DNA of 64,000 nucleotides from Candidatus Babelota bacterium (GCA_049325595.1 JBMOLF010000010.1:32001-96000); one strand, 5' to 3'; shown: positions 2,082 through 52,974, numbered from the stretch's first letter. The notes: generated by a model from the letters alone, not told the origin. Made by a program: numbers and translations.

Positions 2082-2558
2082 ATGAAATATTATTTTTTGT
2101 TCATTGTTTGGAGTTATGGTTTTTGTGCTTACAGTATGCACCATCAGGTAATAGTGAATGTTGTTAATAACACCCCTATGCCGGTTAAAATACAACAAAT
2201 TGGCAGAGAACAAATTATGCATATTCCTGGTATGGAAACATCTCATTATTATATATGGCCATTTCAAAGCAATAATTCATATGAAATGAAATTAAAAATA
2301 TCAGGTGATTTTTTTAGATCGGCATATGTTAAGTATGTAAAAAAAGCTAAAAAAAATGATTGTGTAATTAAAAAAAAGTTAATACGTAATTCAAAGAAAA
2401 TAAAATATAAGGTATGGGGTGCCATATACCAATCTCAGAAAGATATACAAGCTCAGAATGATATCAGAGCGAGCGTTATTAATTTAATCATTGATAATAA
2501 TAAAAAACCAATCATATCACCTGAAGCTATTATTTTAGAACCAGAATTAGCTTTGTAG
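2082..2558 (+). CDS. Hypothetical exported protein
   Basis: Start moved to ATG 2082 because the longer ORF overlaps nrdB and the terminator; hydrophobic N-terminus, then AYS|MHHQ. Confidence 0.6.
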   Translation: MKYYFLFIVWSYGFCAYSMHHQVIVNVVNNTPMPVKIQQIGREQIMHIPGMETSHYYIWPFQSNNSYEMKLKISGDFFRSAYVKYVKKAKKNDCVIKKKLIRNSKKIKYKVWGAIYQSQKDIQAQNDIRASVINLIIDNNKKPIISPEAIILEPELAL

Positions 2559-4352
2559 TTTTTTTATCTGCTCATCGGTAAGAGAATTGAGTAATTCTTT
2601 GAGAGTGCTTTTAATTTCGATATAAAGATTATCTAAATTTTGCTCATTTAATGTATTTTTAGATAATAAAAATTCTTTTGGAGCTTCGTTAAATTTGCGA
2701 TGGTAATTTTCTACTTCTTCTTTTAATAAATCATCTAATTCCTTCATGAATGGCATAAATATTTCACATTCGATGAGCTCGGTAATTTTTATGATCTTGG
2801 ACAGACGTTGATGCATTTTATAAATTTTTTTTAATTTTGAAAAAAATTTTAATGTGTAATCGACCTCAGTATTATAATCATCTAATTTTTCTGGAATAAT
2901 ATAGGTTTTGGCATATTTTTCAGATGACTTCTTTTTCTTAATATCCTGTAAACAGTTTTGTATTTGCGTAATTGAGTTGTTAATGCTTCCTAATATTTTT
3001 TGAAGGGGGGGAATATATTGTGGAATGTGTAAGCGAGTTGCTAAATCTTTCCCCTGGGTGATGCGTTCTTGTAATAAGCTTATTTCTTGAATTCGCATAG
3101 TCAAATATTGTTTTAGGAAATTATTTTGATAGGCAATAAGTTCAGGTCTTATAACCTGATTGAGTAAAGAAATTAATTCAATTTTTAAGTCGTTGGAAAT
3201 AGTTTGGGCGTCTTCTGGTTCGGTAATTGCGCTTACCCATCGTTGTTTTACGCATCTATATTTGCTATTAATTGTCTGATAAAGCAGTAAATGTATGTTA
3301 TTAAGGCTTGAACGAATCTCTTTTTTAGCAAGAAATGTTTTACAAGCATACTTTAAAGCTTTGTATATAGTTCCTATTTCTCTTGTAGGGACATATTCGG
3401 CAAAAATTGAAGAGAGATCTTCATTGTTTTGCTGAGAGTAAAAATTTTTTATAATTTTTTGCATAATCTGTTTTGTTTTAACATTAATTTTTTTGGATAA
3501 AGGATTTATTAAGCTACTGGTAATAAAAAAAAGAGCTCTAAAACTCATCTCTTTTAAAGAAGGTATTTTTTGTTGCTCAATTAAATTATTTTCATTAGGA
3601 AGTTCAACATCAGTGAATAATCCTTCAAAAAATTTTGGGTACTCTTTTAATTCACATGCTAGTGAAAGCGATGATTTGCCCAGTTTATTTTTGATTTTTA
3701 AATTAGCGCCTAAGAATAATAAATCTTTTACGAGATCAGGTTTAACTGAGTGTTGGCTAAGTGCTGTATGCAACGGTGTATCACCCTGTAAATTTGGTTT
3801 ATTTATTTGTCCCCCAAATTTACATAGAGATTCGAATATTTGAAAACGTAAATCTTCACGTAAAATTTGTTTTGGCATATCAGAAAAATCATTTTTTTCT
3901 GTATATAATTTTTTTTTGCGTACCATTAAATGAAAAGGTGTTTCTCCTGTATTGTCTTGATGGTCAGGAATAGCGCCATGTTCTAAGAGAAGCTTGACTC
4001 TAGCAAGATTTAATTCATCGACAGCATTATGCAACGGTGTTTTGCCCTGACGATTCATCCTATTTATAAATTCACTAAAAGGGACAGGGGCATCAGGTAA
4101 TTGTTTTATTAGTGTTATAAGCGTCTGAGCGACACTTACTTTTTTTGTAATATGTAAGCAATTATTTGCATAGCTATCGGTATAGAGTAAGTCTGCTCCA
4201 TTATCTAGCATTTTTTTTACCCGTTCCCAATCACCTTTTTCACAGGCATCAAAAAACAGTTCATTGCCACCCTGATCAAAAATATTTTTTTCCATACCAA
4301 AAAATGGAACGCTTAGGTGCAAAAGTAATATTGTTAAAATGTTTTTTTTCAT
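2547..4352 (-). CDS. Signal-peptide ankyrin-repeat protein with helical/coiled-coil C-terminus
   Basis: GKTPLHNAV, GETPFHL and GDTPLHTAL ankyrin motifs; N-terminus MKKNILTILLLHLSVPFFG|MEK. Confidence 0.9.
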   Translation of the reverse strand: MKKNILTILLLHLSVPFFGMEKNIFDQGGNELFFDACEKGDWERVKKMLDNGADLLYTDSYANNCLHITKKVSVAQTLITLIKQLPDAPVPFSEFINRMNRQGKTPLHNAVDELNLARVKLLLEHGAIPDHQDNTGETPFHLMVRKKKLYTEKNDFSDMPKQILREDLRFQIFESLCKFGGQINKPNLQGDTPLHTALSQHSVKPDLVKDLLFLGANLKIKNKLGKSSLSLACELKEYPKFFEGLFTDVELPNENNLIEQQKIPSLKEMSFRALFFITSSLINPLSKKINVKTKQIMQKIIKNFYSQQNNEDLSSIFAEYVPTREIGTIYKALKYACKTFLAKKEIRSSLNNIHLLLYQTINSKYRCVKQRWVSAITEPEDAQTISNDLKIELISLLNQVIRPELIAYQNNFLKQYLTMRIQEISLLQERITQGKDLATRLHIPQYIPPLQKILGSINNSITQIQNCLQDIKKKKSSEKYAKTYIIPEKLDDYNTEVDYTLKFFSKLKKIYKMHQRLSKIIKITELIECEIFMPFMKELDDLLKEEVENYHRKFNEAPKEFLLSKNTLNEQNLDNLYIEIKSTLKELLNSLTDEQIKKLQS

Positions 4353-51368: not shown

Positions 51369-51558
51369 ACAATTCTCCCTTTATTATTTTTTATAATATT
51401 ATCAAATTGAACTATTTAAAATCAATAATTTAACAACAAAATAATTAGTATTTTAGAATAGAAATTGCATTAATAATGGGGATGAAAAAATTAAGATTTC
51501 CGTTGCAGACTATTTTTAAAATTTTTTATAATAGAAAATATAAGGAGGAGATTTTTTA

Positions 51559-52974
51559 ATGAAGATAAAAAAAATATTAATTATTTTGTTGTGTGTTTTT
51601 AATAGTGCTCATCAGTTTGTTAATACCATGGAGCAAACTAGCGATACTATTACTCTTGTAGCATCTGATGGCAAAAAATTTTATATAAATAAAGACATTA
51701 TCTATAAATTTTCTCCTCTATTGAAAGAGTTTGCTAGTGTTGGCGTAGGAATTGAGCAAGAGCAAACAGGTGTAATCTATTTGGGTCAAGTTGATTCATT
51801 AGTGGTTGAATTTTTACTTAAGGCTATAACAGCAATTGCGCCACTTGAAAAGTTGCTTTGTATAGAAGAAGGAAAGACATTATATTTTTACCCTTTTAAA
51901 GAAGTAAAAAATACGCTTGATGATTTACCGTTACCTATTTATGAAGCAATCTACGAAATACCAAAAAATGACAAGATGACTCAGGGAAATTTATTAGGTG
52001 AATTGTTAAGAGCATCGACTTATATAGATAGTGAAATTTTGGCAAATTATTTTGCTTATAAAATAGCATTAGCATTATACAGAAATTATGAGAAAGAAGC
52101 TAACCAAGCTATTTTAAATAGCCATGAATTTGGTTATCAGAATGACCATGCACTAGAATTAATTCAAAACCATTTGCTATGGTTATATAGAAGAATTGAA
52201 GAATATTCTGTTGCTGATTATCTCTTAGAGCATGGACAATCCCAATTATTTGAAAAGCGTAGTTATATTACGCTAGAAAATCGGCAAGTAGAAGATGTAA
52301 GTTTAGAATTAAAAGATAAAAAAATTACTAATTTATTTGGATTAGATTGTTTAAACAATTTAGACACAGTAACTCAGCTTAATTTAAACAATAATAACAT
52401 CATCAAATTGAATTCAAGACAGTTTCAAAAATTAAAGAAAATAAGATCTATTGTCTTAAATAACAATTTATTAAAAACAATTCCGGTTGATTTATTTGCT
52501 GGACTCCAAAATATAGTAAAGATTGAAATAAACAATAATCAAATCGAATATATTCCGGAACAGCTCTTTAAGTCCTTATCGCATCTTGCTACAATTGATT
52601 TTTCTAACAATAAAATTAAAGAATTATCTGAAGGAATATTTAGTGAATCATGTCAATTGAGGCTATTAGCTCTAAGTAATAATCAAATAAGAACTTTACC
52701 AAAAAATATATTTAGAGGATTACATAATTTAAATCGACTCAATCTGAGTAATAACAAATTAATTGAGTTAGATGCAGATATATTCAAAGATCTAAAACAA
52801 CTTTATCAACTTGATTTAAGCAATAATCACCTGCAAGATATTTCTGCCGATATATTTTTAAATATGCGTCGAGGCATATCGATTAATTTAAAAAATAATC
52901 CTCTTAGTAGTGATACCAAGTCGATGTTAAAACTGCTTGCTAAACAATATAATTATTCTCTACTGATAGATTGA
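51559..52974 (+). CDS. Exported Skp1/BTB-like domain plus LRR protein
   Basis: ITLVASDGKKF...LLRASTYID Skp1-like segment; 24-aa LRRs; AGGAGGAG RBS. Confidence 0.88.
   Translation: MKIKKILIILLCVFNSAHQFVNTMEQTSDTITLVASDGKKFYINKDIIYKFSPLLKEFASVGVGIEQEQTGVIYLGQVDSLVVEFLLKAITAIAPLEKLLCIEEGKTLYFYPFKEVKNTLDDLPLPIYEAIYEIPKNDKMTQGNLLGELLRASTYIDSEILANYFAYKIALALYRNYEKEANQAILNSHEFGYQNDHALELIQNHLLWLYRRIEEYSVADYLLEHGQSQLFEKRSYITLENRQVEDVSLELKDKKITNLFGLDCLNNLDTVTQLNLNNNNIIKLNSRQFQKLKKIRSIVLNNNLLKTIPVDLFAGLQNIVKIEINNNQIEYIPEQLFKSLSHLATIDFSNNKIKELSEGIFSESCQLRLLALSNNQIRTLPKNIFRGLHNLNRLNLSNNKLIELDADIFKDLKQLYQLDLSNNHLQDISADIFLNMRRGISINLKNNPLSSDTKSMLKLLAKQYNYSLLID

Follow-up and report, generated by a model that had tools for sequence, protein, structure and literature searches.

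Introduction

In classical signal peptides, the first mature residue after the signal peptidase I cut (position +1, or P1-prime) is little constrained, whereas bacterial lipoproteins carry a lipobox with an invariant Cys at +1 and are sorted in a manner that depends on residue +2. Here, we analyzed a 64,000-nt stretch of a Candidatus Babelota genome (G000:C10:32001-96000, hereafter the window), in which an earlier note had listed nine proteins with a Met directly after the predicted signal peptide, together with the whole genome (G000) and related genomes of the same phylum. We propose a lineage-specific "P1-prime methionine rule" of the Sec/signal peptidase I pathway, a reading to which we assign a probability of roughly 0.6.

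A lineage-restricted +1 residue has been described in the Bacteroidetes, where, under the so-called Q-rule, Gln follows the cut in signal peptidase I substrates and is cyclised to pyroglutamate (PMC5837995; PMC10653852); the authors favor a role in protein stability over one in sorting (PMC5837995). As outlined in these sources, the Q-rule resembles the Met rule in placing a lineage-restricted residue after the signal peptidase I cut on ordinary Sec signal peptides, but it concerns Gln and most substrates, whereas the Met rule ranges over roughly 13–18% of the signal-peptide-like proteins of G000. The Met rule is further set apart by its bias towards host-directed and orphan proteins and by a partner residue at +2 that varies among the families of the phylum, some of which show no excess. 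To our knowledge, only the Q-rule would precede it as a lineage-wide +1 rule for signal peptidase I substrates. We know of no enzyme that modifies a +1 Met; no search for one was made in G000.

Like classical Sec/signal peptidase I peptides, the leaders studied here open with a positive charge, continue with a hydrophobic core and end with small or aliphatic residues at −3 and −1, and the peptidase gene is present; unlike in the classical rule, Met at +1 is far above chance and conserved in G000. The local sequence L/I–F/Y–A/G/S/T, Met, D/E also has the look of a lipobox, with a box, a fixed +1 residue and a characteristic residue after it. Unlike in lipoprotein signal peptides, however, the +1 residue is Met in all 86 proteins of our strict class (by definition), there is no adjacent Cys, and Met cannot be diacylglyceryl-modified as Cys can; true lipobox proteins with Cys occur separately in G000 (e.g., N-termini with PAC followed by G or N).

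Under the proposed rule, a gene begins at an upstream ATG preceded by a Shine-Dalgarno (SD) sequence and encodes a signal peptide with n-, h- and c-regions. The c-region (L/I/S/A/V at −3, often F/Y at −2, A/G/S/T at −1) is followed by Met and then by Asp/Glu, less often Asn/Gln, with Lys, Asn or Gln often beyond +2 and Asn after that. Signal peptidase I would cut before the Met, the exported protein would start with Met-Asp/Glu, and this Met-first end would mark mainly the host-directed secretome: F-box-like and leucine-rich repeat (LRR) proteins, part of the ankyrin-repeat (ANK) proteins, and orphans.

A cultivated Dependentiae isolate was reported to carry signal peptides on 44% of its coding sequences and on 78% of its ankyrin proteins, with orphans enriched (PMC6561590), and the size, base composition, signal-peptide share and many ankyrin genes of G000 fit the picture given there. 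With nearly half of the proteins of the phylum exported via Sec (PMC6561590), the Met rule bears on telling host-directed from envelope-resident proteins. The word "methionine" is absent from the main text of that paper, and no +1 rule is described there; neither "methionine" nor "TM6" occurs in the Q-rule paper (PMC5837995). No description of a Met rule was found in the Dependentiae literature on signal peptides and cleavage sites, as judged mostly by titles and abstract openings, and the rule appears undescribed in this lineage.

Junction Met in the window and calling of signal peptides

G000 comprises 1,286,077 bases in 24 contigs, with 34.7% G+C and the ordinary set of stop codons. Open reading frames (ORFs) of at least 70 amino acids (aa) were called greedily, and starts were picked by start-codon type and SD score. 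Signal peptides were assigned throughout by a simple heuristic of our own rather than by SignalP: an uncharged 8-residue window of high hydropathy had to begin inside the first 13 residues, the n-region had to be non-negative, and the uncharged stretch could not exceed 26 residues. This rule labeled 655 of ~1280 ORFs of at least 80 aa in G000, and 35 of 60 ORFs in the window, as signal-peptide-like. The heuristic is lax and also passes the cytoplasmic proteins SecA, G6PD and MnmA, so that the Met enrichments reported below are diluted rather than inflated. It missed two of the nine listed genes, one at 2082 (uncharged stretch too long) and one at 8294 (a downstream start was picked).

We use "junction Met" for a Met right after the predicted signal-peptide end (+1), and define the strict Met-class as proteins in which A, G, S or T is followed by Met and then by Asp or Glu immediately after the hydrophobic core. 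Genome-wide, 86 of the 655 signal-peptide-like proteins fall into this class.

All nine N-termini read as the earlier note had claimed, and every junction Met codon was confirmed in window coordinates. Seven of the nine carry Met-Glu/Asp/Gln (six with E/D, one with Q), the remaining two being Met-His and Met-Leu. They are listed here with one further candidate; the slash marks the predicted cut, and "public call" refers to the form found in the public protein collection.

2082..2558, plus strand: signal-peptide-like ORF with no Pfam family; ...CAYS/MHH, Met codon 2136-2138(+)
2547..4352, minus strand: ankyrin-repeat protein, 601 aa (Ank_2, 1.1e-15); ...PFFG/MEK, Met codon 4293-4295(-); public call, long form
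8294..8692, plus strand: small orphan; ...TADA/MQP, Met codon 8342-8344(+)
21662..22273, minus strand: orphan, 203 aa; ...ALFT/MDN, Met codon 22217-22219(-); public call, long form
29151..29684, minus strand: orphan, 177 aa; ...LNQA/MLK, Met codon 29619-29621(-)
32854..34188, minus strand: PLD-like protein, 444 aa (PLDc_2, 2.1e-13); ...PVIG/MEN, Met codon 34126-34128(-); public call, long form
40902..42221, plus strand: LRR protein, 439 aa, GTG start; ...SIGA/MEE, Met codon 40950-40952(+)
42232..42891, plus strand: LRR protein, 219 aa; ...SLFS/MEY, Met codon 42283-42285(+); public call, long form
51559..52974, plus strand: LRR protein, 471 aa; ...FVNT/MEQ, Met codon 51628-51630(+); public call, long form
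58666..60303, minus strand: further candidate; ...THSC/MLT, Met codon 60241-60243

Frequency and sequence pattern of the junction

Asp or Glu is the first charged residue past the hydrophobic stretch in 386 of the 655 signal-peptide-like proteins of G000. The residue right before it is Met in 87 of these 386 (22.5%), compared with 1.4% elsewhere in the proteome, and Gln in 47. When the dipeptide Met-Glu was counted by protein position in the 1216 ORFs of at least 100 aa, positions 17 to 22 gave 7, 11, 11, 12, 10 and 8 occurrences, respectively, against 1.0 expected at each (59 vs. ~6 in sum); Met-Asp peaked at position 19 in the same set (10 vs. 0.8 expected). A, G, S, T or C followed by Met was found in the c-region zone 149 times, while 31.5 occurrences were expected (Poisson P of 1e-51), and residue +2 at these 149 junctions was D/E in 83 and N/Q in 14 (D/E/N/Q in 97). 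The recurrence noticed in nine window genes is thus a genome-wide excess over background.

The Met-class logo (n = 86) is dominated at −3 by L (23), I (16), S (12), A (10), V (9), T (6) and C (5), and at −2 by F (21) and Y (12). Position −1 is occupied by A (35), G (18), S (14), T (10) and P (5), with A/G/S/T in 77 of 86. Residue +2 is E in 62 and D in 24, and it is followed by K (24), N (12) or Q (9) at +3 and by N (27) at +4. A pattern of the −3/−1 type therefore lies directly before the Met, at the place where the earlier note had put the predicted cut.

After the junction Met, E and D are enriched, and Q, N, S, Y and H more weakly so; A, G and V were observed 3, 3 and 2 times against ~2.4 expected each. 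A Kozak-like nucleotide signal (RNNATGG or ATGG-type) was considered and excluded: codons for A, G and V also begin with G, yet they are not enriched. The preference for E/D and not for A/G/V places the signal at the amino-acid rather than the nucleotide level. Met-class proteins otherwise contain little Met, at 0.58 times the proteome average across the body and 0.36 times over residues +3 to +22.

Start codon and signal peptide

In 56 of the 86 Met-class genes, the upstream start follows an SD sequence at least as strong as AGGA; among non-exported genes, 245 of 481 have one. Such a sequence precedes the junction ATG in none of the 86, and internal Met codons generally in 172 of 5586. The leaders span 13–26 codons (median of 18), and K or R stands inside residues 2–6 in 74 of 86 proteins. 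Their uncharged stretch averages 16.7 residues and equals that of other signal-peptide-like proteins in hydrophobicity, a comparison that is partly circular for the h-region, which was required by selection. In same-genus orthologues, the leaders remain open and hydrophobic while their sequence drifts. In the public protein collection, all five window genes compared are present in their long form, and the short form starting at the junction Met is absent. The missing SD sequence and the public long forms rule out the internal Met as the true start, the outcome that would chiefly have refuted the earlier note; on sequence grounds, the upstream ATG is the true start and encodes an ordinary n-h-c signal peptide.

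A Peptidase_S26 (signal peptidase I) match above the cut-off was found at G000:C1:92612-93436, and each of the 61 sampled genomes of the phylum encodes a signal peptidase I. Judging by the −3/−1 site pattern, the enzyme most likely cleaves directly in front of the Met, and the exported protein would then begin with Met-Asp/Glu. A first mature residue under selection is a direct experimental handle on cleavage, location and half-life.

The peptidase gene, the sole one of its kind in G000 (a 342-aa frame), matches Peptidase_S26 in two separate stretches, which suggests an insertion in the catalytic domain. The split form was seen in part of the own family of G000 and in a few others; other genomes have the unsplit form or both.

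Independence and conservation of the Met

With leader and motif removed, the 86 Met-class proteins fell into 66 BLAST clusters (E<1e-5), 46 of them singletons. Some clusters are nearly all Met-class (8 of 9, 6 of 8, 5 of 6 and 3 of 3 members), and in others a single member of 16 or 18 belongs to the class. No signal-peptide-less paralogue starting at the equivalent Met was found in the six families checked. A shared 5' cassette was tried as an explanation and rejected: blastn of the segments from −100 to the junction matched unrelated genes solely along stretches of 100% identity, tentatively read here as overlapping extraction windows of divergently transcribed neighbors. The earlier suggestion that the motif is the scar of signal-peptide cassettes fused to acquired genes finds no support in 66 clusters without a shared 5' cassette.

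Conservation was followed in 600 kb (about half) of the same-genus genome G001. Reciprocal best matches in this sample were found for 19 of the 86 Met-class proteins, whereas 466 of the 595 sampled G001 ORFs have one in G000. The N-terminus could be aligned in ~15 of the 19 pairs, and Met is kept in 13 of them (one Val, one Ser), as judged by eye after correcting three misplaced gaps. Uncorrected, +1 identity is 10/19, the joint highest count over positions −12 to +6, and flanking positions are identical in ~5–8 of 19 pairs. Retention in 13 of 15 compared with a flank identity of 35% (flanks are ~30–35% identical) gives a binomial p of 6e-5. Changes at +2 between orthologues (E to D, D to E, D to N, E to Q) stay within E/D/N/Q.

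Two window genes illustrate this pattern. The orphan at 21662..22273, for which a deep homologue search returned only 2 proteins, has a same-genus orthologue that retains T/MDNTLRPMNK. The PLD-like gene is present in 5 of the 61 genomes searched, and all five homologues (5 genera, 4 of them other than that of G000; 25–54% identity) have the Met, within G/MEN, S/MQN, G/MEK, A/MQS and A/MEG.

Since the clusters are unrelated and the Met is conserved amid diverging flanks, these data argue for selection rather than for a plain scar, cassette or paralogy effect. Purifying selection acts on the Met as a protein residue in many fast-evolving families that are unrelated to one another.

Proteins that carry the junction Met

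For a third of the genome (contigs C15 and C7 plus the window, a selection made by contig irrespective of the results), Pfam was run on 38 Met-class and 193 other signal-peptide-like proteins. Eukaryote-like families account for 4–6 ANK and 3 LRR proteins in the Met-class and for 19 others (ANK, WD40, Sel1, DOT1); other Pfam families for 2 (PLD, GH1) and 62, respectively; and 27 and 112 proteins have no Pfam family. Ordinary Pfam families are depleted in the Met-class (2/38 vs. 62/193, p=3e-4), and eukaryote-like repeats are in excess there without reaching significance (7/38 vs. 19/193, p=0.16). A genome-wide search for the ANK and LRR families, in turn, placed 12 of 34 signal-peptide-bearing members in the Met-class, compared with 74 of 621 other proteins (Fisher odds ratio of 4.0, p=6e-4). 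By family, 5 of 7 LRR and 7 of 27 ANK proteins are strict Met-class, and 3 more ANK proteins have Met with another partner.

An F-box-like motif, defined as LPxE/D followed by aliphatic residues inside 60 residues of the mature start, occurs in 11 of 86 Met-class proteins, in 5 of 569 other signal-peptide-like proteins and in 3 of 626 non-exported ones. Three of those five other proteins also have a junction Met, followed by Gly or Trp. Pfam recognizes no F-box in the motif-bearing proteins (E<=0.001), and "F-box-like" is our reading of the motif. The enrichment of eukaryote-like proteins anticipated in the earlier note is borne out by the ANK and LRR families and by this motif.

Tandem families of small secreted proteins on contigs C15, C7, C19 and C11 (e.g., L016:15826-19762 and L011:4288-6028) carry the LPxE/D-aliphatic motif 7–28 residues past the junction Met, where it reads like a divergent F-box.

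Distribution in the phylum

All relatives belong to one order with ~14 families; besides G000, one genome from each of 11 families was sampled (87–600 kb), and the same script was applied to all sampled genomes. The counts below are junctions of a small residue and Met, observed vs. expected, with the residues found at +2 where they were scored.

G000 (f1, own family): 149 vs. 31.5; 83 D/E
G001 (f1): 60 vs. 15.4; 27 D/E
G010 (f1): 28 vs. 4.9; 8 D/E
G021 (f10): 16 vs. 2.5; 9 D/E
G060 (f3): 18 vs. 3.5; 11 small residues, mostly V/A, and 2 D/E
G054 (f13): 20 vs. 7.3; 15 small residues or Pro (Pro in 6) and 0 D/E
G013 (f2): 8 vs. 2.8
G018 (f7): 4 vs. 1.1
G053 (f6): 18 vs. 6.8; many inside the hydrophobic core and hence ambiguous
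G059 (f11): 4 vs. 3.9
G015 (f4): 0 vs. 1.2
G016 (f5): 4 vs. 2.9
G056 (f14): 3 vs. 3.0

No excess was seen in the sampled stretches (87–200 kb) of f11, f4, f5 and f14, which are similar in base composition and serve as in-phylum controls for the heuristic. Residue +2 differs between families, which leaves Met at +1 as the common element and makes its partner family-specific. We regard the pattern across families (Met-acid, Met-small-or-Pro, none) as a lead and not as evidence that any family truly lacks the rule, and this variation allows a comparative search for a possible reader of the signal.

Each of the 61 genomes has two secretin genes (G000:C9:48860-53923 and relatives), lying no more than ~5 kb apart where coordinates were compared. 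A third, shorter secretin occurs in several families and in none of the 25 sampled genomes of the own family of G000.

Possible role of the Met-first end

The Met-first end may be a functional code in the signal peptidase cut site that marks the host-directed secretome for delivery to, or survival in, the host cell, a reading that we put forward tentatively. If it is true, the effectors of the phylum would be readable from sequence, and the reader would be either a bacterial sorting component or a host pathway that recognizes N-termini. Among specific roles, we rank first, likewise with reserve, an N-terminus that resembles a product of primary translation and is therefore well tolerated by the cytosol of the host. 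An optimum for processing or for protection from exoproteases, as argued for the Bacteroidetes Q-rule, would be an unlikely role by comparison.

The earlier note had linked such a host-made appearance to NatB. The NatB class of N-termini, Met-Asp/Glu/Asn/Gln (PMC11735805), coincides with the set within which +2 is exchanged here and covers 97 of 149 junctions, if the cut precedes the Met; non-acetylated N-termini of this type may be recognized by UBR ligases in flies and mice (PMC11735805). Unlike the NatB class, f3 and f13 use Met followed by small residues or Pro.

Several observations weigh against the proposed rule or against its host-directed function. NatB is described as ribosome-bound and co-translational (PMC11735805), a bacterial protein that has been exported and folded beforehand would be an unusual substrate for it, and the NatB or "host-made N-terminus" idea is doubtful. 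The predicted +1 residues of non-Met sites are "stabilising" in the N-degron sense in 103 of 227 cases, without bias, as called by a weak predictor that was trained on the Met-class itself and recovers 70 of 86 of its own sites. About 17 of the 27 signal-peptide-bearing ANK proteins lack the Met. Conversely, an outer-membrane-protein-like gene (C-terminal ...FAFDY) has N/MDGALPYF, its two tandem paralogues reading A/VAPYY and G/VTPFF, and one GH1 enzyme carries a Met-acidic junction; these carriers fit neither a role in the host cytosol nor a role as a secretion tag. At the level of the phylum, the families without an excess are represented by small samples (87–200 kb), and genomes that are related do not count as independent. 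All 61 genomes have secretins, with or without the rule, no lineage-specific machinery was found, and whether the Pfam match of signal peptidase I is split or unsplit bears no relation to the rule.

The suggestion that the Met could serve as a genome-wide effector tag therefore stands in part: the Met is enriched on ANK, LRR and F-box-like proteins, but most ANK proteins do without it, and the outer-membrane-protein-like and GH1 proteins carry it. The Met rule is neither necessary nor sufficient for effector-like proteins and describes an enrichment, not a definition. As such, it offers a practical sequence aid that enriches for fast-evolving host-directed proteins.

Alternative explanations

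A second sorting step is a possible, if somewhat unlikely, role for the Met: once Sec export and leader removal are complete, a step at the outer membrane or in host delivery would read the Met-acidic end and so tell host-directed cargo from periplasmic residents. The conservation of the Met agrees with such a step, as do its enrichment in F-box-like, LRR, ANK and orphan proteins and its depletion in ordinary enzyme and envelope families, and a +2 residue that differs by family (E/D for f1 and f10, small or Pro for f3 and f13) is what co-evolution with a receptor could produce. However, the two or three secretins of the 61 genomes are present irrespective of the rule, and no machinery tracks it; the outer-membrane-protein-like gene has the Met and many ANK proteins lack it. 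No C-terminal co-signal was seen in Met-class proteins, and the analogous N-terminal Gln/pyroglutamate is not a generic sorting signal according to the Q-rule authors (PMC5837995).

The Met could also be the scar of a former start codon, left without function when a signal peptide was added to an acquired or newly born gene by upstream extension of the ORF. One gene that fits this picture is the NAD-dependent epimerase (GDP-sugar type) of the window.

14037..15053, plus strand: NAD-dependent epimerase with a signal-peptide-like extension; ...NVAP/MPK, Met codon 14106-14108

Here, the Met looks like a retained former start, because the Pfam Epimerase match begins 6 residues later. In the LRR protein at 51559, weak matches to BTB (E=0.0079) and Skp1_POZ (E=0.14), both sub-threshold and the sole basis of its "Skp1" label, likewise begin 6 residues past the Met; the first 194 aa of this protein matched no PDB sequence. 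Met-class genes are also young, as reflected in the low share with a same-genus reciprocal match and in the sparse distribution of the PLD-like gene. As a general explanation, a scar is nevertheless improbable: the Met is much better conserved than its flanks, and no signal-peptide-less paralogue begins at the equivalent position in the six families checked. Moreover, residue 2 of non-exported G000 proteins is K in 17%, N in 11%, S in 11%, E in 4.6% and D in 1.9%, and with E and D used so rarely, a neutral remnant of start codons native to G000 would not yield an acidic +2 at 83 of 149 junctions.

Dual initiation, with the junction ATG acting as a weaker second start that gives a signal-peptide-less cytoplasmic isoform, would account for the ATG itself being the only feature common to all rule-bearing families while +2 varies. 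Codons +2 to +5 are as A-rich at the junction (0.49) as at true starts (0.49), compared with 0.39 at control junctions. Yet the junction ATG lacks an SD sequence throughout the Met-class, and the mRNA around it is no more open (a mean of −8.4 kcal/mol) than at 212 non-Met junctions (−7.8), true starts averaging −5.7. Short forms are missing from the public collection for the five genes compared, and cytoplasmic isoforms of ANK, LRR or F-box-like proteins, let alone of an outer-membrane protein, would have no obvious use. We consider this explanation very improbable.

An artefact, in which the leaders are untranslated AT-rich DNA ahead of a real start at the junction or a few paralogue families or a shuffled 5' cassette inflate the count, is largely refuted: AT-rich leaders (27% G+C) readily encode K/I/L/F-rich peptides and some families are almost wholly Met-class, but the upstream SD sequences, the tight leader length, the leaders kept open and hydrophobic in orthologues, the 66 clusters, the identical 5' stretches read as overlapping windows and the four same-phylum families of similar base composition without an excess all stand against it.

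Other exported or leader-bearing proteins

The outer-membrane-protein-like family (G000:C15:67784-73953 and relatives) is multi-copy and often arranged in tandem; its members measure ~600–700 aa and belong to no Pfam family. Of the 61 sampled genomes of the phylum, 60 have it, and one genome may contain as many as 15 matches.

In the window, 23442-24122 (minus strand) encodes a protein of 226 aa that matches the DOT1 histone-methyltransferase family (7.8e-17) and has a signal-peptide-like start, without a junction Met. Elsewhere in the genome, GNAT acetyltransferases with signal-peptide-like starts were found at L001:9936-10562 and L018:8429-9034, one of which reads ...IQS/MVER; finding such enzymes among exported proteins is surprising, since acetyl-CoA should be confined to the cytoplasm.

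Two further regions of the window, 4349-8184 and 12918-16167, encode normally cytoplasmic enzymes with signal-peptide-like leaders ahead of their Pfam domains: a UDP-glucose dehydrogenase, two family-2 glycosyltransferases, two GDP-mannose 4,6-dehydratase-type enzymes and the epimerase described above.

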